From assembly GCA_963843585.1 (NCBI GenBank), contig CAWJLJ010000014.1, forward strand, positions 51,299 to 75,298: a stretch of DNA of 24,000 nucleotides. Direction: 5' to 3'. Position numbers and translations under genes: made by a program. Source of the DNA: an uncultured Acidobacteriota bacterium. Its GTDB lineage: Bacteria > Actinomycetota > Acidimicrobiia > Spongiisociales > ZC4RG35. Shown in pieces: positions 9,956 through 23,633 of the stretch. Under the pieces are notes generated by a model, which saw only the letters and a program-made list of their open reading frames with translations, searched no databases and was not told the DNA's origin. The number at the start of each line of letters is the position of its first letter. The first letter of the stretch is position 1.

Positions 9956-9983
9956 CATCCGTCCCCCCCGTCTGGTCCGAAGT
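9956..9983 (+). promoter_or_regulatory. Candidate ECF (SigK-like) promoter upstream of the fasciclin lipoprotein gene: CATCC-N17-CGAAGT
   Basis: CATCC at 9956-9960, a 17-nt spacer, and CGAAGT at 9978-9983, 41 nt before ATG 10025. It has the same architecture as the sites at 11183, 14462(-), 17110(-), 17122 and 23633(-). Confidence 0.45.
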
Positions 9984-10024
9984 AGGGGTGACGGCACAAG
10001 TAGTGCCGGAAAGGATGACAAACC

Positions 10025-10678
10025 ATGACCCGAAAGATCAGACTGTCCATGCTCATAGCGGTGCTGGCTCTGGTCGTAGCCGCGTGTGGCGATGACTCCG
10101 CGGAGGACACGACCACCACCCAAGCGGATGCAACCACCACCACCGAGGCCGAGATGACATCGACCACCGAGGCGGGGATGACGACGACCACCGAAGCCGA
10201 CGTGACGTCGACCACCGAGGCCATGATGGAAGAGACTGTCCTCGACATCGCCGCAGGCAACGAGGACTTCTCGACGCTCGCGGCCGCGGTGGAAGCCGCC
10301 GGTCTCCAGGATGCGCTCAGCGACCCTGAGGCCACCCTGACCGTATTCGCCCCGACGAATGAAGCCTTCGAAGCCGCCCTGGCGTCGCTCGGGCTGACGG
10401 CCGAAGAGCTCCTGGCCGACACGGAGACCCTGACCGCGATCCTCACCTATCACGTCCTCGGCGACATCGTCACCTCCAGCGACATCGCCGCAGCAGGAAC
10501 AGAGGAGATCCCGGTGGAAACGCTCTCCGGGGAAGAGTTGGTCGTCGTGGTCGGAGATGACGGGACGGTCGGCTTCGTCGATCAAACGGCGACAGTCACC
10601 ATGGCAGACATCGAAGCGTCCAATGGCGTGATCCACGTCATCGATGCAGTTCTCCTCCCACCATCGATGTCAAGCTAA
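10025..10678 (+). CDS. Fasciclin (FAS1) domain lipoprotein with a Thr-rich repeat linker (MPT83/MPT70-like)
   Basis: A signal peptide with lipobox LVVAAC|G, then 4 x 8-aa TTEAxMTx repeats, then a FAS1 domain (DFSTLAAAVEAAGL, TVFAPTNEAF, LTYHV, NGVIHVIDAVLLP). SD ggaaagga lies upstream. Confidence 0.9.
   Translation: MTRKIRLSMLIAVLALVVAACGDDSAEDTTTTQADATTTTEAEMTSTTEAGMTTTTEADVTSTTEAMMEETVLDIAAGNEDFSTLAAAVEAAGLQDALSDPEATLTVFAPTNEAFEAALASLGLTAEELLADTETLTAILTYHVLGDIVTSSDIAAAGTEEIPVETLSGEELVVVVGDDGTVGFVDQTATVTMADIEASNGVIHVIDAVLLPPSMSS
10139..10234 (+). repeat. Four tandem 24-nt coding repeats (ACCACCGAGGC...) inside the fasciclin gene
   Basis: The units are 10139-10162, 10163-10186, 10187-10210 and 10211-10234. 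Each starts with accaccga(g/a)gc and encodes TTEA-x-(M/V)-(T/M/E)-(S/T/E). Confidence 0.85.
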
Positions 10679-10697
10679 GCGACACGCCGTTCCGCAA

Positions 10698-10734
10698 GAA
10701 CAACGGGCCGCGCTCTGAGCGCGGCCCGTTGTTC
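10698..10734 (+). terminator. Strong hairpin terminator after the fasciclin gene
   Basis: GAACAACGGGCCGCGC-tctga-GCGCGGCCCGTTGTTC is a perfect 16-bp stem, 20 nt after the stop. There is no long U-tract. Confidence 0.7.
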
Positions 10735-10798
10735 GCGTGGATGCAGACGACGGATTGCTGGCTCCCCGCGATGGACGCGCGATAGAAACTTCGGACGG

Positions 10799-11049
10799 GA
10801 GAGTGCCGAGAGGGTCACTGCCTTCTCGGGTTCGATGCCTTCGTCTACATCAACGTCATCTGGTTCGGCTGCTGGATCGGCTTCGGCATAGAGAACTACC
10901 CCTACGGTCTCTTGACCATGGTCGTCTCGCTCGAAGCGATCTTCCTCTCCACCTTTGTCCTGATCTCAAACGCGCGAAGTGCCTGCTCAGAAGCCATTCT
11001 CGGTTCCAGTCATTTCACGTTGTTGACCGTTGCATGCGGTCCGCGGTGA
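10799..11049 (+). pseudogene. DUF1003-like membrane protein remnant (frameshifted, no start codon, degenerate C-terminus)
   Basis: One frame gives NFGRESAERVTAFSGSM, and the next gives AFVYINVIWFGCWIGFGIENYPYGLLTMVVSLEAIFLSTFVLIS, the DUF1003 core that is normally followed by QNRQ. The frames join through a missing G at atg(g)cc near 10837. The tracked 120-aa ORF 10737-11099 is in the wrong frame. Confidence 0.45.
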
Positions 11050-11182
11050 TAGATCCGATGGCAGACGGGCCAGCCTGCAAGCTCCAATCGGTCTTTTGAC
11101 TCCCCGGCATCGCGAACCGACAGCCTTCAAGTGACCTCCACGTCTCAGGAATCACGGTTCTCGAGCGATCCGATGCTCTCGA

Positions 11183-11210
11183 CATCCGATCGGACCGGGC
11201 GCAACGAACA
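11183..11210 (+). promoter_or_regulatory. Candidate ECF (SigK-like) promoter of the heliorhodopsin operon: CATCC-N17-CGAACA, 6 nt from the ATG
   Basis: CATCC at 11183-11187, a 17-nt spacer, CGAACA at 11205-11210, then acgtgc and ATG 11217. There is no SD sequence, which fits a leaderless transcript. Confidence 0.55.
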
Positions 11211-11216
11211 ACGTGC

Positions 11217-11996
11217 ATGACGACAACGACAGAGACCATCGTCACGCCCCGGGCCGGTGATCGTCTCCGTGCCTACAACGTCGGCATGGGCGCGCTCCAC
11301 GCCATCCAGGCCTTCTTGGTCCTTTGGCTGGCCAACGGATTCACGCTCCCGGTGATCGCCACATACATGGCGGGGCCTCCTGGCTCCGCTCCGCCCGCGG
11401 TGACACCCCTCTTCGAGGTGAGCATTGCCTGGGGCGTGGCAATTTTCTTGTTCATGTCCGCCGTGGCCCACTTCCTCATCGCCTCGCCCGGCATCTACCA
11501 GTTGTATCGCCAGAACCTGAATCGCCAGCGCAACTATGCCCGTTGGATCGAGTACTCCCTCTCGTCATCGGTCATGGTGGTACTGATCGCCCTTCTGACC
11601 GGGATCGCCGACATCGCAGCCCTGCTTGCCATTGCCGGAGTCAATGCATCGATGATCCTGTTCGGCCTTCTCCAGGAGAAATATGAGACACCAGGCAAGG
11701 CGGTCGGCTGGCTGCCCTTCTGGTTCGGAGTTCTGGCCGGGGCTATTCCTTGGATCGCTATCGCCTGGTACCTGTTCAGCCCCGGCTTCGATTCGAACCC
11801 TCCCGGGTTCGTGTACGGGATCTTCTTCTCCCTCTTTGTCTTCTTCAACGTGTTCGCGGTCGTCATGGTCCTGCAGTACAAGCAGGTCGGTCGGTGGGCG
11901 GACTACAGCTTCGGGGAATCGACCTACATCCTGCTCAGCCTGGTGGCCAAGTCGGCCCTGGCGTGGCAGGTATTCGGAGGAACACTGGCGACATGA
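11217..11996 (+). CDS. Heliorhodopsin (seven-TM retinal protein)
   Basis: 259 aa, collinear with the prototype heliorhodopsin 48C12 as I recall it. Shared segments are RWIEYSLSSSVMVVLIA, GIADIAALLAIAGVNASMILFGLLQEKY, LPFWFG...IPWI, PGFVYGI and YILLSLVAKSALAWQVFGGTL. The Schiff-base Lys (K245), counter-ion Glu (E112) and conserved His (H28, H85) are all present. Confidence 0.92.
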   Translation: MTTTTETIVTPRAGDRLRAYNVGMGALHAIQAFLVLWLANGFTLPVIATYMAGPPGSAPPAVTPLFEVSIAWGVAIFLFMSAVAHFLIASPGIYQLYRQNLNRQRNYARWIEYSLSSSVMVVLIALLTGIADIAALLAIAGVNASMILFGLLQEKYETPGKAVGWLPFWFGVLAGAIPWIAIAWYLFSPGFDSNPPGFVYGIFFSLFVFFNVFAVVMVLQYKQVGRWADYSFGESTYILLSLVAKSALAWQVFGGTLAT

Positions 11997-12466
11997 GACA
12001 AACCACAGGAACCGAAAGACCGGCAGATCACAAGGCGGTCCGCCTCATCGAGCAGAGATGGGTGGAGCGAGCCCAGGACGAAGCATTCATCTACACCGCC
12101 GATTTCTCCAACATCGAGGACTGGGATCCAGGTGTGGTCTCCTCTCGGGGGCTCGGCCATGGGCCCGTCGGTGTCGGCTCGCAATTCGAGCTGGAGGTCG
12201 AGTTCGGCAGTGGCACGATGCCGATGGTCTACGAGATCACGGAATACGAGCCCAGCGATCGGGTAGTCCTGGTCGGCCGGGGTGACAAGCTCGGCGCGGT
12301 CGACGAGATCCGCTTCTCACGGCACGACAACATGACCGTGATCGACTACACCGCCGACCTCACCTTCCTCAACTGGTACAGGCACATCACCCGCTTGATG
12401 GGACCAAGCCTGAAGAAGGTCGGGACCAAGGCTCTCGACGGCCTCGCGGCCGAGCTGGACAGATGA
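11993..12466 (+). CDS. SRPBCC (START/polyketide-cyclase-like) ligand-binding protein
   Basis: 157 aa. Its ATG overlaps the heliorhodopsin stop as ATGA (11993-11996). The size and pattern are typical of SRPBCC (FSNIEDWDPGV..., GSQFELEVEFGSG..., YEITEYEPSDRVVL). Confidence 0.75.
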   Translation: MRQTTGTERPADHKAVRLIEQRWVERAQDEAFIYTADFSNIEDWDPGVVSSRGLGHGPVGVGSQFELEVEFGSGTMPMVYEITEYEPSDRVVLVGRGDKLGAVDEIRFSRHDNMTVIDYTADLTFLNWYRHITRLMGPSLKKVGTKALDGLAAELDR

Positions 12467-13398
12467 ACAAGTTGGGCATCGCATCCTTCACGAACTTGGG
12501 CTACCGGCTCCACTCCCGCCGGTTCTCCCCGGTCGAGGCCGACATGACCGGCAAGACCGTCGTGGTGACGGGATCCACCGGAGGCCTCGGGCTCGAATCA
12601 GCCCGCTCCCTGTCGAGACTGGGAGCCCGGGTGGTGATCGTCGGCCGGAACGAGCAAAAGCTGGCTTCTGCGGCTGAGAGCATCGAGGGCGAGGTGATGG
12701 CGCAGCAGGCCGACCTCAGTCTGCTGGCGGAGGTCCGGCTGCTCTCCGACCGGCTCATCGAGTCAACCCCGAGGATCGACGTCCTGATCAACAACGTGGG
12801 CGTCCTCATGCCCGAGCGCACGGAGACGGACGAGGGCTTGGAGATGTCCTTCGCCACCAATCTCGCCGGCCACTTCCTACTTACCAACCTCCTGCTTCCC
12901 CGACTTGCCGAGTCGAGGCCGGCCAGGGTCATCAACGTGAGCTCCGGCGGCATGTACGCCGCCCGGATCGATCCCACCGACCTCCAGTTCATGCGGCGCC
13001 GCTACACGGGCAAGGCCGCCTATGCCAGCAGCAAGCGGGGGCAGGTCATCCTCACAGAGATGTGGGCCGAGCGCTTCCCGGGACGGAACGTGGTCTTCCA
13101 TTCGATGCACCCGGGTTGGGCCAAGACCGCCGGGGTGGCCGAGTCCTTGCCCGCTTTCAACACAGTGATGCAGCCGCTGTTGCGCACCCCGGCCGAGGGG
13201 GCCGACACCATCATCTGGCTCGCTGTGGCAGAGGAGCCCCGACGTGGGTCTGGCGGGTTCTGGTTCGACCGAGAGGAGGCGCCGACTCATCTCACTGATT
13301 CCACCCAGGAAACAGCGGCGGACCGGGCAGAGCTGTGGACTGAGTTGGCCCGAGTGACCGGGTCCGATCTCCCGGTTGGCACCGCCCACCGGGACTAG
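12463..13398 (+). CDS. Classical short-chain dehydrogenase/reductase, retinol-dehydrogenase / DHRS-like subgroup
   Basis: Its ATG overlaps the previous stop as ATGA (12463-12466). It has TGSTGGLG (the TGxxxGxG NAD(P) motif), NNVG, Ser (VSSGG) and YASSK (YxxxK). The architecture, including the ~27-aa N-terminal extension, resembles RDH11-14/DHRS12-type enzymes. Confidence 0.88.
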   Translation: MNKLGIASFTNLGYRLHSRRFSPVEADMTGKTVVVTGSTGGLGLESARSLSRLGARVVIVGRNEQKLASAAESIEGEVMAQQADLSLLAEVRLLSDRLIESTPRIDVLINNVGVLMPERTETDEGLEMSFATNLAGHFLLTNLLLPRLAESRPARVINVSSGGMYAARIDPTDLQFMRRRYTGKAAYASSKRGQVILTEMWAERFPGRNVVFHSMHPGWAKTAGVAESLPAFNTVMQPLLRTPAEGADTIIWLAVAEEPRRGSGGFWFDREEAPTHLTDSTQETAADRAELWTELARVTGSDLPVGTAHRD

Positions 13399-13432: not shown

Positions 13433-14425
13433 TCAGTGGTTAGCGGCCTCCGAACCGGTCACCCAAGCATCGACATCGGCCCACAGGTCGAATAGCCATC
13501 GCAGCCTGGACTTGTTGTCATTGGGAATGGCGCTCCGCGGAACCCGCCAGAACCTCATCTCGACCGTGGTTCCGACCAGGCCGCCCGACCACATGTCCTT
13601 GACCCGGGCAAAGCCCTCCAAACCGCGATGGGCGAGGACGACCACGTCGGCCGCGCTCGCGTCGAGAAGAGCCAGCGTGCCACCCGGCTTCGGGGGAAGC
13701 ACCCGCCGGAAGCCGGCAGCGATCTCCCCGATAGGCCCGCCCTCGTCCACCCAGCGGCGGCTGTACCTGACCCGCTTCTCCTCGCTGTATCGAGTGCCTT
13801 CCGGGTAGATGAGGACGCCCTCATCCGCTGCGAGATTGGTGGCGAGCTCCCTAAGGGCAGCCATCTCGGCCTGCGCCGATCCCCTTCGGTCGATGAAGTA
13901 GTTAGGGAGTCGGTTGCCACCGATGTCCAACGCGGGGTCGATCAAGAGTTCCTTCTTCAGGACGTAGCGCAGCTTGATCCCGTGAGGCTTGACCACGTAG
14001 CGACCGGGGAGCATCGTGTCGATCAGCGACGCGTGGCGGGATAGAAGGAGTATCGGCCCAGGCGGGATGGCGGACATCCCCTCGTCGATGAAGGTCAGGC
14101 CGAAGCTCATCCGCAAGGCGTCGAAGTTCCAGTCGAGCCAGACCTGTTGCGCCCGGTAAGTCCAGTCGATCACCCTGTGCCTGGGAAGCAACCCGACGAT
14201 CGCCAGGGCGAGGATGGCCCAAGCCTCGCCAAGCAGGTAGTACCAGGCGAAAGCGCCCGTCCGCAGCGCCATCGCCGGCGTACGCGCATTCACCCATCGA
14301 GCAGCATCGACCAACGCCCCGAGGGGCAGAAGGATCGGGAGCAGGGTCGTGAACAACACGAGACCCGCATATACGGCCGAGATCGTGATCAGCCGCCTGG
14401 TTGTGTTGGCCAGCAATGATCCCAT
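13433..14425 (-). CDS. PlsC-family (lyso)phospholipid acyltransferase, membrane-anchored
   Basis: 330 aa with N-terminal TM helices, the HX4D motif (SRHASLID) and the EGTR motif (IYPEGTRY). Confidence 0.85.
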   Translation of the reverse strand: MGSLLANTTRRLITISAVYAGLVLFTTLLPILLPLGALVDAARWVNARTPAMALRTGAFAWYYLLGEAWAILALAIVGLLPRHRVIDWTYRAQQVWLDWNFDALRMSFGLTFIDEGMSAIPPGPILLLSRHASLIDTMLPGRYVVKPHGIKLRYVLKKELLIDPALDIGGNRLPNYFIDRRGSAQAEMAALRELATNLAADEGVLIYPEGTRYSEEKRVRYSRRWVDEGGPIGEIAAGFRRVLPPKPGGTLALLDASAADVVVLAHRGLEGFARVKDMWSGGLVGTTVEMRFWRVPRSAIPNDNKSRLRWLFDLWADVDAWVTGSEAANH

Positions 14426-14433
14426 CCGCTGTC

Positions 14434-14462
14434 AATTCGGCGCCGAACAACTAACTGGATGG
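14434..14462 (-). promoter_or_regulatory. Candidate ECF (SigK-like) promoter of the acyltransferase gene: CCATCC-N17-CGAATT, 8 nt from the ATG
   Basis: The minus strand reads CCATCC-agttagttgttcggcgc-CGAATT-gacagcgg-ATG. It contains the 12-bp perfect palindrome TTCGGCGCCGAA. Confidence 0.6.
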
Positions 14463-14512
14463 CTTCTTCGCTCAGCAGGCTCCGGAATCAAGTCGCTCCA
14501 GACGCTGTTTGA

Positions 14513-15721
14513 GTGCAGCTGATGCCGTCCACCATCTTCGTCATCTGGTTTGGAGCCGCCTTTGTTCTGACGGTCAACGCCCTGCGCCGCCCGGTGCAAC
14601 CAGGGAAGGGGATCCCACCCCCGTGGCTGCCCGCCATGATCGTCTCTGAGCTGGCGCCGTGGCTCCTCCTCGTGAGGATGTTGGGAGTCGTGGCGTTCAT
14701 CTGGATCGGGGTCCTGGAGTCGGCGGCAGGCCAGGTGGGGCTGGCGCTCTTCATCCTGTCCGAGCTGGGTTTGCTGATCTTGATCGGGCGAACGCTCGCC
14801 TCCGCCCGCGCCACCGGCCACAACCCCTCCTCGTGGTCACTGTTTCGGATCTGGGACCCCCTGCCCGAGGGAGTCATTGTGATTCCGGAAGTGCACTATT
14901 GGGATGGCCTGACCCTCGATATCTACCGGCGCGCGGAGTCGACTGCGGCGCCCGCCTTGATCTATGTCCACCCGGGCTCTTGGATGAGAGGGCGCCCTGG
15001 GCGCCAGGCCAGGGCGATGTTCCATCTTCTTGCCGTCTCCGGATGGGTGGTCCTCGATATCCGCTACCCACTCTCACCCGCAGCGACGTTCCCGGAGCAT
15101 CTCATCGGCGTGAAACGTGCCATTGCATGGGCCAGGACTGGAGGTGGCGAATACGGGATCGACCCCAATCTGGTCGGCATCTCGGGCGGCTCGTCGGGCG
15201 CCCATCTTGCTGCCCTCGCCGCGCTCACCTGGGACCGGACAGAGCTTCAGCCCGGCTTCGAGGACGCGGATACCAGCGTCATCGGATGCGTGCCCTTCTA
15301 CGGGATCTACGACCTGCTGGTGAGGAACCCGACACGGTTCGACTGGCCCTTCATCGCGCGGTACGTTCTCAAGGCCGACAAGCAAGAGGCCCCAGACCTC
15401 TATCGACTGGGATCGCCCATCGATCAGGCCCGCGGTGACACGCCCCCCTTCCTCGTGATCCACGGAGAGTTCGACTCCGTCGTCCTACCGGAGGAATCAC
15501 GCCACTTTGTGGCCGCCCTCGAGAGGGTCGGGGGGCGAGTCGAGTATCACGAGATCCTGGGAGCCCAGCATGGCTTCGATGCCGTGGCATCGCTGCGCTC
15601 CAGAGCCGTGGGGCGAATGGCCGCCGAGTGGCTCGGAGGGATCGTGTCGGAGATATCCAATAGAGGTCATCCGTCTCCAGAAGCGACTCTGAATGCAACG
15701 CCGGAGGCCCATCAGGCCTGA
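14513..15721 (+). CDS. Membrane-anchored alpha/beta-hydrolase (esterase/lipase, fold-3 / ICME-like)
   Basis: About 4 N-terminal TM helices, then LDIYRR..PALIYVHPGSW, the nucleophile elbow GGSSG, and the Asp/His candidates HGEFDSVV and GAQHGFD. The start may be GTG 14513 or ATG 14522. Confidence 0.85.
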   Translation: MQLMPSTIFVIWFGAAFVLTVNALRRPVQPGKGIPPPWLPAMIVSELAPWLLLVRMLGVVAFIWIGVLESAAGQVGLALFILSELGLLILIGRTLASARATGHNPSSWSLFRIWDPLPEGVIVIPEVHYWDGLTLDIYRRAESTAAPALIYVHPGSWMRGRPGRQARAMFHLLAVSGWVVLDIRYPLSPAATFPEHLIGVKRAIAWARTGGGEYGIDPNLVGISGGSSGAHLAALAALTWDRTELQPGFEDADTSVIGCVPFYGIYDLLVRNPTRFDWPFIARYVLKADKQEAPDLYRLGSPIDQARGDTPPFLVIHGEFDSVVLPEESRHFVAALERVGGRVEYHEILGAQHGFDAVASLRSRAVGRMAAEWLGGIVSEISNRGHPSPEATLNATPEAHQA

Positions 15722-16443
15722 GTGGCCACCGCCACGACATCGCCTTCACTGATGACCACTCCGCCGGCAACCTCCCGGGTCAGGGCGAACCCCGAAACGT
15801 CACCGGTCCACGTGAAGGTCGAGGCGCGAGGCTCGTTGCCTAGTACGCCACCGGAAATCACCTGCTCGTCGGTGGTGATCACCCACAGCTGATAGGTGCG
15901 CTGAGGCATCAGGGGCTCGAGATCCTCGGTGGGAACGACGAAGCCGTGGCCATCCTCGGTGAGAATCACCTGCGCAACGGAGGAGCCGTCGACCAGGAAA
16001 TCGCCGACGTAGGCACCGCTGCTGGAGGCCGCTTGCTCGGCCGCGGCGATCACTGCCGAGTCGCCCGTCAGATCGTGGAGTAACGACCTCTGAGCCAGGG
16101 CTATACCGGCGAAGACAAGGGCGGCCACGGCGGCGATTGCGGTCAGCAAGGTCACAGCTCTGGTTCTCCGTGGCTGCCCTTCTTCGAGATCGATGACCTC
16201 GGCGGCCCGGCCGAGTGGGATGTCCGCCCCGTTTCCGATAGCCGAGGCGATCCTGTCCCATCCATGGGTCGGCGTGGGTTCGTCCGGGACCAATTTCGAC
16301 GTCACGGCCGAGTACCGGGCCAGTTCGCGAAGACAGGCGTCACATGAGTGGAGGTGAGTCATCACCGCCTGGAGCTCATTCCCCTCCAGGCTGTCGAGGG
16401 CATAGAGCGGGACCAGTTCGTGGAGGAGGCTGTGGTTCGTCAT
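15712..16443 (-). CDS. rskA: Anti-sigma factor, RskA-like, with an N-terminal zinc-binding (ZAS) HxxxCxxC motif
   Basis: Its start overlaps the sigma gene stop as ATGA. It has H-LHS-C-DA-C (ZAS motif), one central TM helix (LLTAIAAVAALVFAGIALA), and an extracytoplasmic RskA-type domain (RTYQLWVITTDEQVISGGVL). Confidence 0.82.
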   Translation of the reverse strand: MTNHSLLHELVPLYALDSLEGNELQAVMTHLHSCDACLRELARYSAVTSKLVPDEPTPTHGWDRIASAIGNGADIPLGRAAEVIDLEEGQPRRTRAVTLLTAIAAVAALVFAGIALAQRSLLHDLTGDSAVIAAAEQAASSSGAYVGDFLVDGSSVAQVILTEDGHGFVVPTEDLEPLMPQRTYQLWVITTDEQVISGGVLGNEPRASTFTWTGDVSGFALTREVAGGVVISEGDVVAVATQA

Positions 16444-16988
16444 GCTGTCGCTCCCGACAGCGAGACCGCCAGCTTCTTCATGCCGCTGCGGATTCGGCTC
16501 TTCACAGTTCCCTCGGGCTCGCCCAGCCTCTTGGCCACCTCCACGTAGCTGAGCCCACCGAAATAGGCCAGAGAGATCGCCTCCCGTTCGCTTTCGGCGA
16601 GATCGTCGAGGGCCTTGCGCACCAACTCGGACAGGTTCCGGGTCCAGACCTCGTCAGCGACGTCGTAATGATCCGGATCTGGCGGCTTCTCTTCCCTACG
16701 GGCTCGGGCCACCTCGGATCTCACAATGTCCACTGCCCTGCGATGAGCGATGGTGAGCAGGAAGGTGCGCAATGAGCCGCGCCCGGGGTCGTACTTCTCC
16801 GGCGCGTTCCAGAAACCCACGAACGTGTCCTGCACGACATCATCTGCCAAAGCCTCGTCTCTCAACACCCGGAGAGCGATGGCCTTGACTGCGCCGCCGT
16901 ACTGCTGGAAGAGAGCTTCGAGCGCGGATTGGTCGCGGCTGGCAACTCTCTCCGCAAGAAGGGCATCCGGGGTGTTCGAGTCGCTCAT
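16440..16988 (-). CDS. sigK: ECF sigma-70 family factor, SigK-like
   Basis: Region 2 is DDVVQDTFVGFW and region 4 is LAYFGGLSYVEVAKRLGEPEGTVKSRIRSGMKKL. It is co-transcribed with the rskA-like gene. The preferred start is ATG 16988 (MSDSNTPD...). An upstream in-frame ATG at 17072 lies 10 nt after the candidate -10 and could be a leaderless start. Confidence 0.85.
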   Translation of the reverse strand: MSDSNTPDALLAERVASRDQSALEALFQQYGGAVKAIALRVLRDEALADDVVQDTFVGFWNAPEKYDPGRGSLRTFLLTIAHRRAVDIVRSEVARARREEKPPDPDHYDVADEVWTRNLSELVRKALDDLAESEREAISLAYFGGLSYVEVAKRLGEPEGTVKSRIRSGMKKLAVSLSGATA

Positions 16989-17082: not shown

Positions 17083-17110
17083 TATTCGTCACCGCCCCGA
17101 GCCCTGGATG
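17083..17110 (-). promoter_or_regulatory. Candidate autoregulatory ECF promoter of sigK-rskA: CATCC-N17-CGAATA
   Basis: The minus strand reads tCATCC-agggctcggggcggtga-CGAATA. It lies back-to-back with the plus-strand copy at 17122-17150, with the two -35 elements 11 nt apart. Confidence 0.6.
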
Positions 17111-17121
17111 AGACAGCCGAC

Positions 17122-17150
17122 CCATCCGGTCTGCTGTTCGGCGACGAATA
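17122..17150 (+). promoter_or_regulatory. Candidate ECF promoter of the oxidoreductase-DUF1365-CFA synthase operon: CCATCC-N17-CGAATA, 6 nt from the ATG
   Basis: CCATCC-ggtctgctgttcggcga-CGAATA-cgcggc-ATG(17157). There is no SD, and it shares GTTCGGCG(A/C)CGAAT with the sites at 14434 and 23605. Confidence 0.62.
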
Positions 17151-17156: not shown

Positions 17157-18467
17157 ATGGGACAGAGAATCGCGATCGTCGGAACGGGCATCTCCGGTCT
17201 CGGCGCCGCCTGGGCCTTGCATCGGGACAATGACATCACGGTCTTCGAGGCGGACAATCGGATAGGCGGCCATTCGAATACCGTCGATGTCGAGACCCCC
17301 GATGGTCCTCTGGCGGTCGACACCGGATTCATCGTTTACAACGAGGTCACCTACCCCAACCTGACCCGCCTCTTCTCGTCGCTCGGCGTATCCACCGAAA
17401 TGAGTGACATGTCGTTTGCCTTCTCCCTGGACCGCCAGTTCGAGTACGGGGCGAGCCTGAGTGGGGTTTTGGCCGAGCCGGGCAACCTCCTCAGCCCGAG
17501 GTTCCTCCGGATGCTTCGAGACATAAGTCGATTCCGCCGCATCGGGACCATGCTGGAGCCGGCGGGCGACGAGAACATCGGCGAACTCCTCGAACGGTAC
17601 GGCTTCTCCCAAGGCTTCCTCGATGACTACCTCTACCCCATGACCGGTGCGATCTGGTCGGCTCAGCGATCGAATATCAGCATGTTCCCCGCTGCGTCGA
17701 TTCTCCGCTTTCTGGCCAACCACGGATTGATCGAGATCGTGGGGCGGCCCAGGTGGCGGACTGTGACCGGTGGGAGCCGGAGCTATGTCAATCGACTTGT
17801 GAGGCCCTTTGCCGACCGAATCAGAACGAACTCGCCCGTGAATCGCATCGTCCGCCTCGGCGGTGAGGTGCTGGTCGAGTCCAATGGGCAGACGCAGTCG
17901 TTCGAACAGATCATCTTCGCCACCCACCCCGATCAGGCTCTGGCCATCCTCGGTGAGGACGCCACCGATACCGAGGGCGCCGTACTCGGTGCCATGCGGT
18001 ATGAGTCGAACGTCGCCGTCCTCCATAGCGACTCGAGCCTGATGCCCCGGAACCGCAGGGTTTGGTCCAGCTGGAATGCGATGGCGGAGGAAGCCGGCCG
18101 CCGTCACCAGGTGGCCTCGGTGACCTACTGGATGAACCGCCTCCAGAACCTCAACCCCTCGTACCCCTTGTTCGTCTCCCTCAATCCGTTGCGGGAGCCG
18201 GATCCAGGCCAGGTTCACGCTCGTTTCGCATACGCCCACCCACAGTTCGATCTCGAATCGGTGGCGGCACAACAGGGTCTCGCCGCGATCCAGGGCCTGA
18301 GCAACACCTGGTTCGCCGGGGCCTACCTCGGCTACGGCTTCCACGAGGACGGGCTCCAGTCAGGTCTCAACGTGGCAGCGGCCCTCGGCTCCCCGGTGCC
18401 ATGGCACGGCACTTTCGAACCAGTTAGCTCGGCCCCGTCCTTCACGGGGAGGGTGGTGGTCCCTTGA
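17157..18467 (+). CDS. FAD/NAD(P)-binding amine-oxidase-family oxidoreductase (Rv0449c-like)
   Basis: 436 aa with an N-terminal Rossmann motif RIAIVGTGISGLGAAW...VFEA..RIGGH. The size and context match the flavin oxidoreductase that accompanies DUF1365 and CFA-synthase genes. Confidence 0.85.
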   Translation: MGQRIAIVGTGISGLGAAWALHRDNDITVFEADNRIGGHSNTVDVETPDGPLAVDTGFIVYNEVTYPNLTRLFSSLGVSTEMSDMSFAFSLDRQFEYGASLSGVLAEPGNLLSPRFLRMLRDISRFRRIGTMLEPAGDENIGELLERYGFSQGFLDDYLYPMTGAIWSAQRSNISMFPAASILRFLANHGLIEIVGRPRWRTVTGGSRSYVNRLVRPFADRIRTNSPVNRIVRLGGEVLVESNGQTQSFEQIIFATHPDQALAILGEDATDTEGAVLGAMRYESNVAVLHSDSSLMPRNRRVWSSWNAMAEEAGRRHQVASVTYWMNRLQNLNPSYPLFVSLNPLREPDPGQVHARFAYAHPQFDLESVAAQQGLAAIQGLSNTWFAGAYLGYGFHEDGLQSGLNVAAALGSPVPWHGTFEPVSSAPSFTGRVVVP

Positions 18468-19246
18468 GGCCGTTACGGTCTGCCCTCTACCAGGGCCGGG
18501 TGCGCCACACCCGGCTCCAGCCCTTTCATCACGATTTCGAGTACCGGGTCTTCTACGGGCTATTCGATATCGACGAGCTCGACTACCTCGACCGGGGACT
18601 CAGGCTCTTCTCAGTCGGAAGACGCAACCTGGCGAGCTTCTACCCCCAGGACCATGGCCCCGTCGACGGGAGCTCTCTTCGAGCCTGGGCCGAAGACGTC
18701 CTCGCAGAGGCGGGTGTCGACATCGACGGCGGAAGGATCGAGCTGCTCGCCTTCCCCCGGATCCTCGGCTACGCCTTCAACCCGTTGAGCGTCTGGTACT
18801 GCTACGGGAGCGAAGGCAATCTCAAAGGAGTCCTCCACGAGGTGCGGAACACGTTCGGTGACCGCCACGTGTACGTGGTGCCCGTCAATGATGAGACGGC
18901 GTACCGACACAGCTTCGCCAAGGCGATGCACGTATCCCCTTTCAATCCGATGGAGCAGACCTACCACTTCACGGTCAACCGGCCCGGGAAGCGGCTTCAA
19001 GTGGCGATCGAGCAGACCGACGAAAGGGGCAAGGTGTTCCGGGCGGGGATGAGGCTCTCACGGATTCCCTTGACCGACCGCAATCTGCTCAGGGTCTTCT
19101 TCACTCACCCCCTGGTGACGATGAAGGTCATCGCAGGGATCCACTGGCAAGCCCTGCGGCTCTGGCTCAAGGGCGCCACCTATCGGAAACGCCCTCGGCC
19201 CCCCGCCGATAGCATCACGATCGTGGACCCGAGCATGGTCGGATGA
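18464..19246 (+). CDS. DUF1365-family protein
   Basis: 260 aa. Its TTG start overlaps the previous stop as TTGA. The motifs SALYQGRVRHTR..P..H.F.YRVFY and FPRILGYAFNPLSVWYCY are typical of DUF1365. Confidence 0.8.
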   Translation: MRPLRSALYQGRVRHTRLQPFHHDFEYRVFYGLFDIDELDYLDRGLRLFSVGRRNLASFYPQDHGPVDGSSLRAWAEDVLAEAGVDIDGGRIELLAFPRILGYAFNPLSVWYCYGSEGNLKGVLHEVRNTFGDRHVYVVPVNDETAYRHSFAKAMHVSPFNPMEQTYHFTVNRPGKRLQVAIEQTDERGKVFRAGMRLSRIPLTDRNLLRVFFTHPLVTMKVIAGIHWQALRLWLKGATYRKRPRPPADSITIVDPSMVG

Positions 19247-20409
19247 AGGCCCGGGAGCGGCTAGGTCTCCGCGTCTTCTCCTGGCTGGCACGTGCAGGGA
19301 GCATCCAGGTGACGCTTCCCACCGGGGAGACGGTATCGATCGGCCACGGGTCGCCCGGCGCCGACGTCGAGATCACGGACTATTCGGCCGTGGCCGACAT
19401 CCTCCGCACCGGCCTCACCGGATTCGCGGAGGCGCATATGGACGGGCGGATCGAGACCTCGGACCTTCCCGCCCTGCTCCGCTGGGGCGTAGCCAACCAA
19501 GCCGCCTGGTTCGAGCACCCCCTGGCCCGTCTGACGCTGCCCTTCCGGAGGCTGTGGCAGCGGATCCGTCCCGAGAGACGGCACCCGCGAGTGCGAAGCA
19601 TGAACGATCATTACAACCTCGGAAACGACTTCTACGAGAAGTGGCTCGACGAAACGATGACCTACTCCTCCGCCCGTTTCCTCGACCCCGACCAACCGCT
19701 GTCGGGAGCCCAGATGAACAAGTACCGGCTGATCGCGGACAAGGCTGGCTTGGCGCCCGGGATGCGGGTACTCGAGATCGGATGCGGTTGGGGAGGATTC
19801 GCCGAATACGCAGCCTCGGAAAGAGGCTGTGAGGTCACCGCAATCACCTTATCCAAGGAGCAGGCGTCCTACGCCGAGAAGCGGATCGCCGAGCGCGGCC
19901 TGGCCGACAAGGTCGAGATCCGGCTCGCCGACTTCAGGGACATCACCGGCGAATTTGACGCAGTCGTCTCCATCGAGATGATCGAATCGGTCGACGAGAC
20001 CCATTGGCCGGCCCTGTTCGAGATGATCGCCGACCGCCTCAAGCCAGAGGCGCGGGCTGCGATGCAGATCATCACGATCAGAGACGACGAGTGGGAGCGC
20101 TACCGATCCAGGGCCGACTTCATACAGCAGTACATCTTCCCCGGGGGACAGATCCCGGCGCCCAAGGTCCTCAAGGCGTTCGCCGGCAAGGCCCGTCTGG
20201 ACGTGGAGCAAATCGAGACCTTCGGCCTCGACTACGCGCGAACCCTGGCGGCTTGGCGGGACCGCTTCCTGGAGGCGTGGCCGGTGCTCCAGGTTGAACA
20301 CGACCTCGACGAGCGTTTCCGCCGCATGTGGGAGCTGTACCTCGCCCTTTGCGAGGCGGGGTTCCGCATGGGGCGGATCAACGTCGAGCAGTGGGTATTC
20401 GCCCGCTGA
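19243..20409 (+). CDS. Cyclopropane-fatty-acyl-phospholipid synthase-family SAM-dependent methyltransferase
   Basis: Its ATG overlaps the previous stop as ATGA. It has HYNLGNDFYEKWLDETMTYSSA, the SAM motif VLEIGCGWGGFA, DAVVSIEMIE, FIQQYIFPGG and YLALCEAGF. Confidence 0.88.
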   Translation: MKARERLGLRVFSWLARAGSIQVTLPTGETVSIGHGSPGADVEITDYSAVADILRTGLTGFAEAHMDGRIETSDLPALLRWGVANQAAWFEHPLARLTLPFRRLWQRIRPERRHPRVRSMNDHYNLGNDFYEKWLDETMTYSSARFLDPDQPLSGAQMNKYRLIADKAGLAPGMRVLEIGCGWGGFAEYAASERGCEVTAITLSKEQASYAEKRIAERGLADKVEIRLADFRDITGEFDAVVSIEMIESVDETHWPALFEMIADRLKPEARAAMQIITIRDDEWERYRSRADFIQQYIFPGGQIPAPKVLKAFAGKARLDVEQIETFGLDYARTLAAWRDRFLEAWPVLQVEHDLDERFRRMWELYLALCEAGFRMGRINVEQWVFAR

Positions 20410-20453
20410 TAGATCTCCTCCGGCTCCTTCGCCCAGGTTCCTGACCCGGATCT

Positions 20454-20481
20454 CATCTGAATCACTCGACCGCTCCGAAGC
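20454..20481 (+). promoter_or_regulatory. Weaker match to the ECF motif: CATCT-N17-CGAAGC, upstream of the 20535 gene
   Basis: tCATCT-gaatcactcgaccgctc-CGAAGC, 53 nt before ATG 20535, which has its own SD gaaggag. There is one mismatch in the -35 and the -10 is degenerate. Confidence 0.3.
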
Positions 20482-20534: not shown

Positions 20535-20939
20535 ATGCGCAAGCTGATGCTTCTCATGGCCGTGATGGTGGTGGCGATACTGCCGGCCACGGCCGCAATG
20601 GCCCAGTCGGACGAGGGTCAGGTCATCGTGGTTCACGGTGTTCCCGATCTGGACGTCGACGTGTACGTCAACGGTGAGCTCACCCTCGAGGGCTTTCAGT
20701 TCGGCGATGTAGCCGGTCCGCTGGACCTGCCCGCCGGCACCTACGAGATCGAGATATTCGCCGCCCTCTACCCGAAGGAAGAGCTGCCCCTGGACGCTAT
20801 CTTCTCCAAGGAGGGGCCTCCGGTGCTGACACTCATTACGTGCGGCGGCGGCTTTGATCCAGGCGTCGCTCGCTACGACAGCAACGTCGTCGTCTACGCC
20901 ACGCCAGCTGTCGACCTCCCGGCTTCTTTGATCGGGTGA
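20535..20939 (+). CDS. Secreted chimeric protein: signal peptide plus DUF4397-like N-terminal half fused to a sortase (class F-like) C-terminal tail
   Basis: Signal peptide MRKLMLLMAVMVVAILPATAAMA. The segment VIVVHGVPDLDVDVYVNG...LPAGTYEIEI is DUF4397-like. The segment LPLDAIFSKEGPPVLTLITCGGGFDPGVARYDSNVVVYATP is a sortase C-terminus with the TLxTC Cys and a downstream Arg, but there is no His-bearing sortase core. Confidence 0.6.
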   Translation: MRKLMLLMAVMVVAILPATAAMAQSDEGQVIVVHGVPDLDVDVYVNGELTLEGFQFGDVAGPLDLPAGTYEIEIFAALYPKEELPLDAIFSKEGPPVLTLITCGGGFDPGVARYDSNVVVYATPAVDLPASLIG

Positions 20940-21985
20940 TGGTGTCCTTCTCACGCTCGACCACAGGTAGCCTCCACGCTTTCGTAACGGAGCGAAAAGT
21001 GGATGAAAGCAGCCTCAGATCTGCGCGGCTCGGAGTCACCGCGGCCGCCCTTTCGGGGGACTCCGGCGGGCTCTACAACATCGTTGCCCGCCTCATGGAT
21101 GAGGGGGTTCCTCTCGACTCGCTGCTCTTCGACCTCCTCCTTCCCACTGAAAGAGATGTCGGATCGCGATGGCAAAGCGGGGATTACCTGGTCTCGGAGG
21201 AACACACCGCGACGGCCACAGTCGAGACCGTCGTCGCGCTCCTTGCGGGGTCGTTGGACCAACCAGAGGACGGCCTCCATGTCGTGGTTGCCTCAGCTGA
21301 AGGCGACTCTCACTCCTTGGCAGGCCGGGCCGTGGTCGCCTATCTACTCTTCAGCGGATTCCGGACCACCTTCCTCGGCGCCAACGTGCTCGCAACCGAC
21401 CTGCGGGAGTTCCTCGCCAGCGAGCAGCCCGACGCGATGATCATCTCCTGCACGATGACCAACCATCTCATCGGAGCCAGGGCAGTGATCAGCCAGAGCC
21501 ACTCCGCAGACGTGCCTGTACTCGCGGGAGGGCGGGCGTTCGGCGGGACCGGGGCGTGGGCGACCACGCTCGGAGCCGACGCCTGGGCGTCGCACCCGAG
21601 AGAGATCCCAGGCGTCCTACAGACCTGGGTGCCAGACGTAAGAGCGTCCGAGAGCCGGGCTCGTAACCCTTCGGACGACCTGCTGAAGCTGATCGAACGA
21701 CGCACCTCGGTTCTCGCTCGAGCACAGGAGGATCTGGAGCGACGTCTCGGAGAAACGCCTGGCCCCCGCCTGCGAGACGAGCTCGCCCTGCTTCTCGGCG
21801 CTGTCGAAGCGTCTTTGCTGGTAGGCGACAACGAGGTGGTCGTCGAGGCTCTCAAGTGGCAAAGAGCGACCCTCCAGGCCCACGGGCACGGCGACTCGGG
21901 CCCACTGACGGAGGCCGTCATTGCAGGCTTGCAGCCGGTATCCCTCGAAGCCGCCGAGGCTCTTCGCTCCGCCCTGTCCAGTTAG
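20936..21985 (+). CDS. Stand-alone cobalamin (B12)-binding protein, CarH/AerR-like, lacking a DNA-binding domain
   Basis: A four-helix-bundle region carries W79-x9-E89-H90 (RWQSGDYLVSEEH). A Rossmann-like B12-binding domain carries DSHSLA (the DxHxxG-type lower-ligand His126) and VLAGG. A ~130-aa helical C-terminal extension follows. The start is uncertain: GTG 20936 or ATG 20939 (coupled to the upstream stop), or GTG 20999 with ggag upstream. Confidence 0.75.
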   Translation: MMVSFSRSTTGSLHAFVTERKVDESSLRSARLGVTAAALSGDSGGLYNIVARLMDEGVPLDSLLFDLLLPTERDVGSRWQSGDYLVSEEHTATATVETVVALLAGSLDQPEDGLHVVVASAEGDSHSLAGRAVVAYLLFSGFRTTFLGANVLATDLREFLASEQPDAMIISCTMTNHLIGARAVISQSHSADVPVLAGGRAFGGTGAWATTLGADAWASHPREIPGVLQTWVPDVRASESRARNPSDDLLKLIERRTSVLARAQEDLERRLGETPGPRLRDELALLLGAVEASLLVGDNEVVVEALKWQRATLQAHGHGDSGPLTEAVIAGLQPVSLEAAEALRSALSS

Positions 21986-21994
21986 ACGCCGGTC

Positions 21995-22028
21995 GGAGCG
22001 GGGGGTGGGTCACGCCCCACTCCGCTCC
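21995..22028. terminator. Imperfect GC-rich hairpin between convergent genes
   Basis: GGAGCGG..GTGGG-tcacgc-CCCAC.CCGCTCC lies between the 21985 stop and the 22064 stop. Confidence 0.4.
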
Positions 22029-22063
22029 GTGGCGAGCGAATCCCCAGCCCGACGGGCAACCTC

Positions 22064-23596
22064 TTAGATCGGTGGCTTCGGGCGTCGGCCGGCCACCTCG
22101 ACAATGCGACGGGCCATCGGGCCGAAAACCATCGAATGGAACGGCCAGAGCAGATACCAGTAGAGGCGACCTGCCAGTCCGCGTGGGGCGAAGTGAGCGG
22201 TCTGGATCAGACTGGTATGGCCACTCTTGCTTTCGACTTCAAACTCGAGCCAGGCCTCGCCAGGCAATCTCATCTCGGCGACCAGCAGGAGGCGTCGGTT
22301 GTCTTCGAGGTCGGCCACCCGCCAGAAGTCGAGTGTGTCACCTCGCACCAAAGCAGTGCGGGGTCCCGCATTTCGCTGGAGGCCGACACCGCCCACCACA
22401 CGGTCGATCAGACCTCGAAACCACCAGGCCCAACCGGCGGCGTAGTAGCCAACTTCGCCTCCTATCCGTGTCACTGCCCAGTAGACGTCCGCTGCCGGAG
22501 CTGCCGTTTCCACCACCTTGCGGTCCCGCAGCCAGCGGGCACCGGCCCAGGCCGGATCGGTTGGCAGGCTCACCGCCGGTTGCTCCACAGCCTCGTGCCA
22601 TCGGGTTTCATCGGTGTTCCCCTCCACCCTTTCCAGGGCGTCAGAAACGGCCTCGCGATACGGGCTGAGGGGACGCTCGACAAACTCTGTTGCCGCGTTC
22701 TCGGTGACAACGACCTCGGTGATGAGGCTGTCTATGAGGGTGCGCGCGATTCGGGTGGGCACTGCGGTGACGAGACCCACCCATCGAGAGGAGAGCGAGG
22801 GGGAGAACATCGGCACTGGCAAGATCAGGCGGTGCCGAAGACCGGCCTCTTCGGCGTAGATCTGCATCATGTCCCTGTAGGTGAGAACGTCGGGACCGCC
22901 CACCTCCAGCATCTGATGATCGGCCAGGTCGTGATCGAGCAGTCCGACAAGAACTGCCAATACATCCCTGGCAGCGATGGGCTGGCATCGAGTCTGAACC
23001 CAACGAGGCGTGATCATCACTGGAAGCACCTCGGTCAGATGTCGAAGCATTTCGAACGAGACCGAGCCCGACCCGATGATCACTGCCGCCCTGACCTCAC
23101 TGAGTGCGATCGGACCGGCGGCGAGAACCCGACCTACCTCTTGACGGCTGGCCAGATGGCCGGAGAGGTTGGTCGAGCCTCCCAGACCACCCATGTAGAT
23201 GATCCTCTGCACGCCCTGACGTTCCGCCGCCCGACGGAAGTTCTCGGCGGCTTGACGGTCACGGGTGGCAAACCCCTCGCCGCCGTCCATCGAGTGAATC
23301 AGGTAGTAGGCGGTGTCAATCCCCTCCAGAGCGGCGTCCAACGATGCCCGCTCCAGAGCATCCGCCACCGCCACCTCCACCTGCTTATGCCAGGGGTGGC
23401 CGCTGAGACCCTCGGCGCTCCGCACCATGCAACGCACCTGATAGCCCGCCGCCAGGAGTTGGGGCACCAGGCGGCCCCCCAGGTAGCCACTGGCTCCGGT
23501 CACCAGCAATGTGGATCCGGAAGTGCGTGCGGGGTCAGCCGACGATGGCTCCGCTGATGCCCTCTCGTACTGTTGCAAAGCATCCTCGTTCGTCAT
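22064..23596 (-). CDS. Atypical SDR / NmrA-like NAD(P)-binding domain fused to a DUF2867 domain
   Basis: 510 aa with LLVTGASGYLGGRL (Rossmann fold) and an extended-SDR-like N-terminal half. The C-terminal ~150 aa (WRVADLE...LLLVAEMRLPGEAWLEFEV...) are typical of DUF2867. Confidence 0.82.
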   Translation of the reverse strand: MTNEDALQQYERASAEPSSADPARTSGSTLLVTGASGYLGGRLVPQLLAAGYQVRCMVRSAEGLSGHPWHKQVEVAVADALERASLDAALEGIDTAYYLIHSMDGGEGFATRDRQAAENFRRAAERQGVQRIIYMGGLGGSTNLSGHLASRQEVGRVLAAGPIALSEVRAAVIIGSGSVSFEMLRHLTEVLPVMITPRWVQTRCQPIAARDVLAVLVGLLDHDLADHQMLEVGGPDVLTYRDMMQIYAEEAGLRHRLILPVPMFSPSLSSRWVGLVTAVPTRIARTLIDSLITEVVVTENAATEFVERPLSPYREAVSDALERVEGNTDETRWHEAVEQPAVSLPTDPAWAGARWLRDRKVVETAAPAADVYWAVTRIGGEVGYYAAGWAWWFRGLIDRVVGGVGLQRNAGPRTALVRGDTLDFWRVADLEDNRRLLLVAEMRLPGEAWLEFEVESKSGHTSLIQTAHFAPRGLAGRLYWYLLWPFHSMVFGPMARRIVEVAGRRPKPPI

Positions 23597-23604
23597 CCAC
23601 TAGT

Positions 23605-23633
23605 GATTCGGCGCCGAACCTTGTCGTGGATTG
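23605..23633 (-). promoter_or_regulatory. Candidate ECF promoter of the SDR-DUF2867 gene: CAATCC-N17-CGAATC, 8 nt from the ATG
   Basis: The minus strand reads CAATCC-acgacaaggttcggcgc-CGAATC-actagtgg-ATG(23596). It shares the 14-mer ATTCGGCGCCGAAC with the acyltransferase promoter. Confidence 0.55.

Follow-up and report, generated by a model that had tools for sequence, protein, structure and literature searches.

Introduction

Among extracytoplasmic function (ECF) sigma factors, the SigK–RskA pair of Mycobacterium tuberculosis underlies the MPT70/MPB70 antigens of the tuberculosis complex, and descriptions of its regulon reportedly include one by Veyrier in 2008. The promoter consensus of M. 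tuberculosis SigK is CCATCC-N15-CCGAAT (Supplementary Table 2, PMC4821874). Here we describe a 24-kb stretch of DNA from a bacterium of the class Acidimicrobiia (contig CAWJLJ010000014.1, positions 51,299 to 75,298; hereafter the window, with positions counted from its first letter) in which a motif of this kind recurs ahead of a sigma/anti-sigma operon, a heliorhodopsin operon and further transcription units.

A second system invites comparison. In Rhodobacter sphaeroides and Rhodopseudomonas palustris, UfaD, UfaO (DUF1365) and UfaM make furan fatty acids, which act as scavengers of singlet oxygen; the ufa genes are under the control of the ECF pair sigmaE–ChrR and are needed for its full activation. 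Promoters of the ChrR type read TGATCC-N16-CGTA, and the corresponding regulon of Pseudomonas syringae includes a photolyase, a bacteriophytochrome operon, a short-chain dehydrogenase/reductase (SDR) and an esterase (PMC5507510). Light induction is on record for the Mycobacterium kansasii homologues of mpt70/mpt83, which carry SigK sites, and a SigK/RskA-like pair of Rhodobacter capsulatus is induced by singlet oxygen.

Results

A SigK-type motif recurs along the gene cluster

Our motif survey covered the window and related loci or contigs from other genomes, with 100 dinucleotide-preserving shuffles of the window serving as background for motif counts. In the notation used here, CATCC-N17-CGAA corresponds to a 16-bp spacer between hexamers, and CATCC-N16-CGAA to one of 15 bp. 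In hexamer form, the window sites are (C/T)CATCC-N16-(C/A)CGAA(T/C/G); both boxes match the published SigK consensus, the spacer being 16 at seven listed sites and 15 at two reverse promoters described below. These seven had been picked out in an original prediction made from the window alone, and their positions, sequences and distances to start codons all check out. Two of them form part of bidirectional modules (see below), and the other five are:

9955–9982, plus strand: predicted SigK-type promoter of the fasciclin gene (TCATCC 9955–9960, 16-nt spacer, CCGAAG 9977–9982)
11182–11209, plus strand: predicted SigK-type promoter of the heliorhodopsin operon (ACATCC 11182–11187, 16-nt spacer, ACGAAC 11204–11209, 7 nt to ATG 11217)
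17084–17111, minus strand: predicted autoregulatory SigK-type promoter of sigK–rskA (TCATCC 17111–17106, 16-nt spacer, ACGAAT 17089–17084, 11 nt to ATG 17072)
17122–17149, plus strand: predicted SigK-type promoter of a ufaD/ufaO/ufaM-like operon (CCATCC 17122–17127, 16-nt spacer, ACGAAT 17144–17149, 7 nt to ATG 17157)
20453–20480, plus strand: predicted, weakened SigK-type promoter of a DUF4397 remnant/B12-binding pair (TCATCT, 16-nt spacer, CCGAAG, 54 nt to ATG 20535)

The fasciclin ATG lies 42 nt 3′ of its −10 hexamer and is preceded by a Shine–Dalgarno sequence. The TCATCT site at 20453–20480 is orthologous to a full TCATCC…CCGAAG in two related loci (L007 and L083), at the same distance of 53–54 nt ahead of the DUF4397 genes.

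The window holds five copies of CATCC-N17-CGAA against a shuffle mean of 0.35 (maximum 2), and relaxing the first box to ATCC gives seven copies against 1.05. This excess is bound to spacing: ATCC-N16-CGAA occurs five times (mean 1.04), as against one match for N15 (1.08) and none for N18 (0.91). All 12 of the N16/N17 matches fall between 9.9 and 23.7 kb, and the 9.9 kb before that hold none. Of the seven N17 matches, six are intergenic and sit on the transcribed strand, 6–41 nt 5′ of the start codon of the adjacent gene; no sigma-70-like promoter was found upstream of these units in the window. The seventh (12573–12597) lies within an SDR gene and was dropped as an internal promoter, since it reads GATCC and is kept only among near-identical relatives; we judge it to be a coding coincidence. 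We likewise rejected the idea that the sites are copies of a mobile or repeated element, the longest stretch shared by any of them being 26 nt, between the two bidirectional modules.

Three ATCC-N16-CGAA matches on the minus strand point the wrong way. One (10732–10755) runs into the terminator hairpin of the fasciclin gene, another (20428–20451) into the 3′ end of the cyclopropane fatty acid (CFA) synthase gene, and the third (20981–21004) is antisense within the 5′ end of the B12-binding protein gene. Close relatives share the first two, at a spacing that differs by 1 nt. All three could be antisense promoters or chance matches.

The motif is conserved ahead of heliorhodopsin and its neighbors

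Scanned with a heliorhodopsin alignment, a set of genomes limited to one per species yielded 80 loci. The nearest of these (L001) encodes a heliorhodopsin protein identical to that of the window (100%), and most close relatives are labeled Acidimicrobiia. TCATCC-N17-CGAA stands directly before heliorhodopsin in 10 of the 12 top-listed loci (L001–L012, heliorhodopsins 69–100% identical) and in one further locus (L020, 74%); in L012 the −35 box carries ATCT. Two metagenome loci (L081 and L083) add further motif-bearing heliorhodopsin sites. In an alignment of 12 heliorhodopsin sites anchored at the motif, conservation is limited to cATCCg and taCGAAt, the spacers and flanks having diverged, and the start codon follows CGAA at 8 nt in 10 sites and at 9–10 nt in the other two. 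Conserved boxes followed at 8–10 nt by the start codon are the pattern of a functional promoter, from which a leaderless heliorhodopsin mRNA is predicted. Orthologous motif sites were also found for other genes of the cluster:

Fasciclin: L001, L002, L006
Acyltransferase: L001, L002, L081
sigK: L006, L081–L083 and many others
Flavin adenine dinucleotide (FAD) oxidoreductase: L007, L081, L082
DUF4397: L007, L083, L103, L107, L119
SRPBCC: L007, L020, L106

The original prediction had named conservation upstream of orthologues as a condition for the motif to be real, and it is indeed kept in about a dozen species whose spacers and flanks have diverged. Across 1.9 Mb of related loci, [CT]CATCC-N16/17-CGAA gives 88 matches, 52 of which lie directly before homologues of the window regulon genes; other spacings give 17–37 matches, with 0–3 in such positions. 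These data bear on whether the recurrence could be a chance or compositional effect of GC-rich DNA, an idea to which the shortness of the boxes, the single match inside a gene and a few N16 matches in odd orientations lend something. With none of the 100 shuffles reaching the observed counts, an enrichment that is specific to spacing, positions and orientations relative to gene starts that fit a promoter, and conservation across about a dozen species, we regard a chance origin as refuted and its probability as negligible.

The strict motif is absent before heliorhodopsin in the loci of Nanopelagicales, Chloroflexi and Demequinaceae. Heliorhodopsin nevertheless has neighbors of the same families (fasciclin, DUF2867, ufaD–ufaO–CFA synthase, B12-binding) in about 20 of the 80 loci, Chloroflexi included, and since the Chloroflexi clusters stand under a different, sigma-70-like promoter, the association would be functional and not only regulatory. 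In three of the Chloroflexi loci (L053, L070, L075), a conserved TTGACA-N17-TAAATA with the palindrome TTTAGTGCTAAA precedes fasciclin–heliorhodopsin(–DUF2867) clusters, and this palindrome-bearing element may be an operator. In four loci (L065, positions 5513–10750; L007; L034; L061), heliorhodopsin directly follows or lies near an SDR–FAD oxidoreductase–DUF1365–CFA synthase cluster (in L065 the genes share one strand and heliorhodopsin ends the series), which ties it to probable furan fatty acid genes even where no strict motif was found.

A sigma/anti-sigma pair of the SigK–RskA family

The motif-bearing sigma/anti-sigma operon (15712–17072, minus strand) comprises two genes joined by an ATGA overlap of the sigK stop and the rskA start:

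16440–17072, minus strand: sigK (best PDB match 4NQW, SigK, 2.9e-28; best NCBIfam model NF007228, SigK)
15712–16443, minus strand: rskA (RskA_C, PF10099, 1e-13, 52.1 bits against a cutoff of 29.4; HLHSCDAC motif)

In the PDB ranking, M. tuberculosis SigK (4NQW_A, at the value given above) is followed by R. sphaeroides RpoE (8e-19). The anti-sigma partner has a zinc-finger-like N-terminus, one membrane segment, the RskA_C domain and an HxxxCxxC motif (HLHSCDAC). Taken together, sigma similarity, anti-sigma domain, promoter and core regulon assign the pair to the SigK–RskA family (ECF18/19), within which the sigma factor is by sequence a distant member of the SigK subfamily, short of an equivalog-level match.

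A scan of metagenome contigs with the window sigma factor gave 80 sigK-homologue loci (41–94% identity), of which 78 had upstream DNA of sufficient length. In 29 of these 78, ATCC-N16/17-CGAA occurs no more than 200 nt from the aligned sigK start, against 0.66 expected from the background rate; both hexamer spacings occur (16 in 25 cases, 15 in 4), and the consensus reads gtCATCCG…cCGAAcA. The copy ahead of the window operon had been taken as a sign of an autoregulated ECF sigma factor, and its recurrence before sigK homologues bears this out. Given the match to the published SigK consensus and the enrichment upstream of sigK homologues, the motif is best described as the autoregulatory promoter of the SigK family and not as a new element; the recurrence first noticed in the window is thus real, while the motif itself had already been published for mycobacteria.

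Our reading is that the motif is a promoter read by the cluster-encoded SigK-type ECF sigma factor (ECF18/19), itself restrained by the membrane anti-sigma factor RskA, and we put its probability at roughly 0.8. Consensus match, enrichment and conservation uphold the initial claim of one ECF-sigma-type promoter ahead of the sigma/anti-sigma operon and six other units, the heliorhodopsin operon among them. Another ECF sigma factor of similar specificity (for instance a ChrR-partnered sigmaE-type paralogue encoded elsewhere) might instead read some or all of the sites, so that the adjacent SigK controls only a part. ChrR-type promoters do share the ATCC…CG(T/A)A core with the window sites, CGTA and TGATCC variants appear in related loci, and RpoE of R. 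sphaeroides is the second-best structural relative of the window sigma factor. Set against this, both boxes match the SigK consensus, the window sites read CATCC and CGAA (the CGTA and TGATCC variants being confined to the related loci), the motif precedes sigK both in the window and in the 29 homologue loci, and the 24 kb contain no second ECF sigma gene; we consider control by such a paralogue improbable.

Several observations weigh against assigning the sites to the adjacent SigK. The spacer at most window sites is one base longer than in the listed M. tuberculosis consensus, and 49 of the 78 sigK homologues have no strict motif upstream. The window sigma factor scores 164.8 bits on NF007228, below the curated NCBIfam cutoff of 226, and is devoid of cysteines, so that the redox pair of M. 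tuberculosis SigK (C133/C183; redox-sensitive cysteine pairs of this kind are reported for 94% of the ECF18 members and 56% of those of ECF19) is absent here. The link between heliorhodopsin and motif is confined to one Acidimicrobiia clade (heliorhodopsins at least 73% identical), two more heliorhodopsin loci carry the CGTA variant, and in Chloroflexi loci with the same gene neighbors a sigma-70-like promoter takes its place. The intragenic match at 12573 and the wrong-way N16 matches indicate that a sequence match does not guarantee function, and start points and SigK dependence are predictions, the evidence being that of sequence.

In distant sigK loci (L130 at 3486, L140 at 6030, L155 at 11276 and 12157, L098 at 10381), the motif precedes other genes, namely those for cupredoxin-like lipoproteins (at three loci, the motif being 7 nt ahead of the start), a ferritin-like protein and a DUF2889 protein, all of which may also belong to SigK-family regulons.

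Compact, predicted bidirectional modules with palindromic −10 boxes

Two of the seven sites are proposed, from their sequence, to be bidirectional SigK promoters, a feature missed when the sites were first described:

14422–14462, both strands: predicted bidirectional SigK promoter module 1; minus strand CCATCC 14462–14457, N16, CCGAAT 14440–14435, 9 nt to ATG 14425 (acyltransferase)
14422–14448, plus strand: plus arm of module 1; CCATCC 14422–14427, N15, CCGAAC 14443–14448, toward the BD-FAE hydrolase gene
23593–23633, both strands: predicted bidirectional module 2; minus strand CAATCC 23633–23628, N16, CCGAAT 23611–23606, 9 nt to ATG 23596 (SDR–DUF2867)
23593–23619, plus strand: plus arm of module 2; TCATCC 23593–23598, N15, CCGAAC 23614–23619

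The reverse promoters of both modules (CCATCC/TCATCC-N15-CCGAAC) have the exact mycobacterial spacing, and module 2 resembles 14423–14448 over 26 nt. Both directions of module 1 are kept in L001, L002 and L081, with the plus-type promoter reading as a perfect CCATCC-N15-CCGAAT in L002 and L081, and the motif also precedes BD-FAE homologues in related loci. L006 has a similar two-way design, in which the opposite gene is FabH-like. If module 1 is bidirectional, the BD-FAE hydrolase joins the predicted regulon; downstream of the plus-strand promoter of module 2, no recognizable gene was found. Because each −35 box extends into the region where the opposite unit starts, the two promoters of a module could not be occupied together. 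An ECF promoter that works in both directions within 41 bp, with palindromic −10 boxes, would be of some interest for promoter architecture.

The palindrome ATTCGGCGCCGAA, at 14435–14448 and 23606–23619, consists of two −10 boxes back to back. It could also be read as an operator for a transcription factor that binds as a dimer (two sites have TTCGGCGCCGAA and a third comes close to it), with the promoter motif there a by-product, and the perfection of the palindrome over 12–14 bp at both positions and in L002 and L081 speaks for this. Yet the palindrome is exactly two opposite-strand CCGAA(T/C) −10 boxes, each with CCATCC/TCATCC at 15–16 bp, and in at least one case such paired boxes have the downstream gene to match; four other sites have no palindrome, and the FAD oxidoreductase site of L081 loses its near-palindrome while keeping both boxes. 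We consequently dropped the repressor operator, which we hold to be very unlikely, in favor of back-to-back −10 boxes.

A 17-codon open reading frame (ORF; 14459–14512, plus strand) begins at the predicted plus-strand transcript start of module 1 and ends with a TGA directly before the GTG (14513) of the BD-FAE gene. Its counterpart in L002 has 20 codons and an ATGA overlap with the hydrolase start, and the peptide is not conserved; this ORF may only couple translation.

Genes of the predicted regulon

The gene calls of the original prediction are backed by Pfam and NCBIfam, and stop/start overlaps (ATGA, TTGA, GTGA) mark tight operons in the window. Besides sigK–rskA, the following genes stand behind the sites:

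10025–10678, plus strand: fasciclin-domain lipoprotein of the MPT70/MPT83 type (PF02469, 1.9e-29)
11217–13398, plus strand: heliorhodopsin operon (heliorhodopsin 11217–11996, SRPBCC/polyketide_cyc2 11993–12466, SDR 12463–13398; ATGA overlaps)
13433–14425, minus strand: PlsC-type acyltransferase (PF01553)
14513–15721, plus strand: BD-FAE/alpha-beta hydrolase of the esterase–lipase type (PF20434)
17157–20409, plus strand: operon of a FAD/NAD-binding amine-oxidase-like (UfaD-like) protein, DUF1365 (UfaO-like) and a CFA-synthase-like methylase (UfaM-like) (Pfam)
20535–20939, plus strand: DUF4397′–sortase′ fusion remnant (comparison with relatives)
20936–21985, plus strand: stand-alone B12-binding protein (PF02310, PF02607)
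22064–23596, minus strand: NAD-binding (NDUFA9/NmrA-like) and DUF2867 protein (Pfam, PDB match)

The heliorhodopsin assignment is firm (PF18761, 337 bits; NF038020, 326.6 bits against a cutoff of 100), and the retinal-binding lysine K245 is invariant across 33 sequences. The operon at 17157–20409 matches PF01593/PF13450, PF07103 (281 bits) and PF02353 (276 bits), has overlapping stop and start codons, and shares its gene order with ufaD–ufaO–ufaM of R. palustris (RPA2571–2569); judged by these sequence matches, it probably serves furan fatty acid synthesis. By family, this operon and the fasciclin gene correspond to the classical types of the mycobacterial SigK regulon (Rv0449c–0447c and mpt70/mpt83, respectively). 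The regulon outlined in the original prediction is in this sense partly familiar: its core (fasciclin, FAD oxidoreductase–DUF1365–CFA synthase) was already known in mycobacteria, and it is the extension to heliorhodopsin that stands as an addition.

The supposed DUF4397 gene did not prove to be a proper gene. The 134-residue ORF at 20535–20939 joins, in frame, ~77 codons from the start of a DUF4397 membrane-protein gene to ~58 codons from the end of a sortase gene, and as three relatives (L082, L007, L083) keep both genes intact (a 266-residue DUF4397 membrane protein and a 273-residue sortase), about 1.2 kb has been deleted here. The promoter ahead of this remnant is also the one with the −35 mismatch.

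The B12-binding protein had been described as photoreceptor-like. Residues W79-x9-E89-H90 and D124-x-H126 are invariant in six aligned homologues, a W-x9-EH plus lower-ligand histidine motif that we take to be the mark of the CarH/LitR-type light-sensing B12 module. The closest solved relatives are stand-alone cobalamin-binding proteins (8J2W/8J2X, 5e-34 over nearly the full length), and the match to the light-sensing domain of CarH (5C8A) is 4e-8; Pfam and NCBIfam revealed no MerR-type or other DNA-binding domain. The description therefore holds for a CarH-like module and fails for a DNA-binding domain such as CarH has.

The N-terminal domain of the window DUF2867 protein is most similar to NDUFA9-type proteins (the 39-kDa subunit of complex I). 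A look-up of this protein, meant to carry the locus further rightward, yielded no record. In ten loci of Acidimicrobiia and Chloroflexi (L005, L022, L028, L030, L031, L034, L045, L053, L070, L075), heliorhodopsin adjoins or overlaps an NAD-binding/DUF2867 gene, and in 'Ca. Actinomarinales' heliorhodopsin sits between two nuo operons.

Within the fasciclin gene, four tandem 24-nt repeats (10100–10228) encode a Thr/Glu-rich linker (TTTEA type) between the lipoprotein signal and the fasciclin domain, and a strong hairpin (10697–10735, −45 kcal/mol) lies 3′ of the gene. Between the fasciclin gene and the heliorhodopsin promoter runs a membrane-protein-like ORF fragment (10791–11048, plus strand; FDAFVYINVIWFGCWIGFG…). 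Pfam gave no match for this fragment, which may be what is left of a pseudogene.

Two RNA-gene-like elements flank the whole SigK cluster. On the plus strand, a 66-nt element (9701–9766) matches only the tRNA-like domain of transfer-messenger RNA (tmRNA; 31.2 bits, short of the gathering score, 47; E 9.4e-11), both ends aligning while 17 nt stand in for the 322-nt middle of the model; on the minus strand lies a degenerate tRNA (23786–23846; 20.2 bits, below 29). ARAGORN, and Rfam at gathering thresholds, returned no matches in the window, and ARAGORN called neither element. Both may be relics of integration or rearrangement.

Discussion

We can sketch how the cluster would operate. Once freed from RskA by a signal, SigK would bind with RNA polymerase to the −35 box (C/T)CATCC and the −10 box (C/A)CGAA(T/C), 16 bp apart (15 bp at the reverse promoters), and transcription would start some 7–9 nt 3′ of the −10 box, on the start codon or immediately beside it, giving leaderless mRNAs for five units. 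The predicted regulon would comprise sigK–rskA itself (positive feedback), the ufaD–ufaO–ufaM-like operon, the fasciclin lipoprotein and heliorhodopsin–SRPBCC–SDR; further, the acyltransferase with the divergent esterase-type hydrolase (the 41-bp module) and the NDUFA9-like/DUF2867 protein; and, more weakly, the DUF4397-remnant/B12-binding pair. SigK dependence, transcription start points and the nature of the signal are what we infer here.

Two questions meet at this locus: what heliorhodopsins do, and what switches on SigK–RskA. The presence of heliorhodopsin in a predicted SigK regulon suggests that the sigma factor responds to light or to light-induced oxidative damage. A photo-oxidative signal is suggested by the ufa-like operon, the ChrR-like promoter core and cargo, the singlet oxygen-induced pair of R. 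capsulatus, the light induction in M. kansasii, the CarH-like B12 module and the recurrence of the same gene families beside heliorhodopsin in other loci. By analogy, the system may be the actinobacterial counterpart of the photo-oxidative (singlet oxygen) sigmaE–ChrR response, with heliorhodopsin and the B12 protein as light-related cargo or co-sensors. Our hypothesis is that the regulon answers light-driven oxidative damage to membranes and that heliorhodopsin is expressed as part of that answer. A bolder version is offered tentatively, as a possibility that we would not bet on: SigK–RskA would be a light or photo-oxidative switch of Actinobacteria, in which heliorhodopsin and the CarH-like B12 protein act as light sensor or light-gated partner of membrane-lipid protection (furan fatty acids, acyl remodeling) and may feed back on RskA.

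Neither the motif nor the core regulon is new, both having been described for mycobacteria. What this locus adds is a predicted regulon that also takes in heliorhodopsin and a B12 photoreceptor-like protein (conserved in roughly a dozen Acidimicrobiia species), the bidirectional modules and the hypothesis on the SigK signal.

Compared with SigK–RskA of M. tuberculosis (Said-Salim, 2006; Veyrier, 2020), the window has the same CCATCC/CCGAAT boxes, an ECF sigma factor with an RskA_C anti-sigma factor, autoregulation, and a fasciclin gene (MPT70/MPT83 type) together with a FAD oxidoreductase–DUF1365–CFA synthase operon beside sigK. It differs in its spacer (16 bp at most sites, 15 in M. tuberculosis), in that sigK has a divergent promoter of its own where the mycobacterial gene is read through from the Rv0449c promoter, and in a SigK without cysteines next to an RskA with HxxxCxxC. 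The window regulon also adds heliorhodopsin–SRPBCC–SDR, the acyltransferase, the hydrolase, the DUF2867 protein, the B12-binding protein and the bidirectional modules.

With the sigmaE–ChrR systems of R. sphaeroides and P. syringae (PSPTO_1043), it shares an ECF sigma factor with a zinc-type anti-sigma domain, the core ATCC-N16/17-CG(T/A)A, a ufaD–ufaO–CFA-synthase-like operon adjoining and divergent from the sigma gene, and SDR and esterase genes (a likeness at the level of family and gene order). Light-related genes also belong to both regulons (photolyase and bacteriophytochrome there, heliorhodopsin and the B12 protein here). The anti-sigma factor is, however, a membrane protein of the RskA type where ChrR is soluble and carries a cupin domain, the −10 box reads CGAA and not CGTA, and the sigma factor is closer to SigK; lacking the ChrR cupin domain, the window system would work like sigmaE–ChrR without being a member of it.

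CarQ–CarR in Myxococcus and LitR–LitS in Streptomyces likewise pass a light or singlet oxygen signal on to an ECF sigma factor, and in photoreceptors of the CarH type a B12-binding module with Wx9EH is the light sensor. These systems use other sigma families and promoters, and the window B12 protein differs from CarH in having no DNA-binding domain. The 'RpoE–ChrR' pair of R. capsulatus (RCAP_rcc00699/00698) is 34% and 25% identical to M. tuberculosis SigK and RskA, above its identity to R. sphaeroides RpoE–ChrR; induced by singlet oxygen, it adjoins light-related genes (cryB), although it belongs to a proteobacterium and comes without a ufaD/ufaO operon or a rhodopsin.

For heliorhodopsin itself, the literature searched contained no paper linking it to a sigma factor, to SigK/RskA, to a fasciclin protein or to DUF2867, in keeping with the earlier impression that its tie to an ECF sigma factor was undescribed. 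For heliorhodopsin neighborhoods, Bulzu et al (2021) report glutaredoxin, peroxidase, catalase and two-component genes and make no mention of a sigma factor, a fasciclin protein, cyclopropane or furan fatty acid genes or a promoter motif; there, as here, the neighboring genes led to heliorhodopsin being seen as a sensor tied to protection from photo-oxidative stress.

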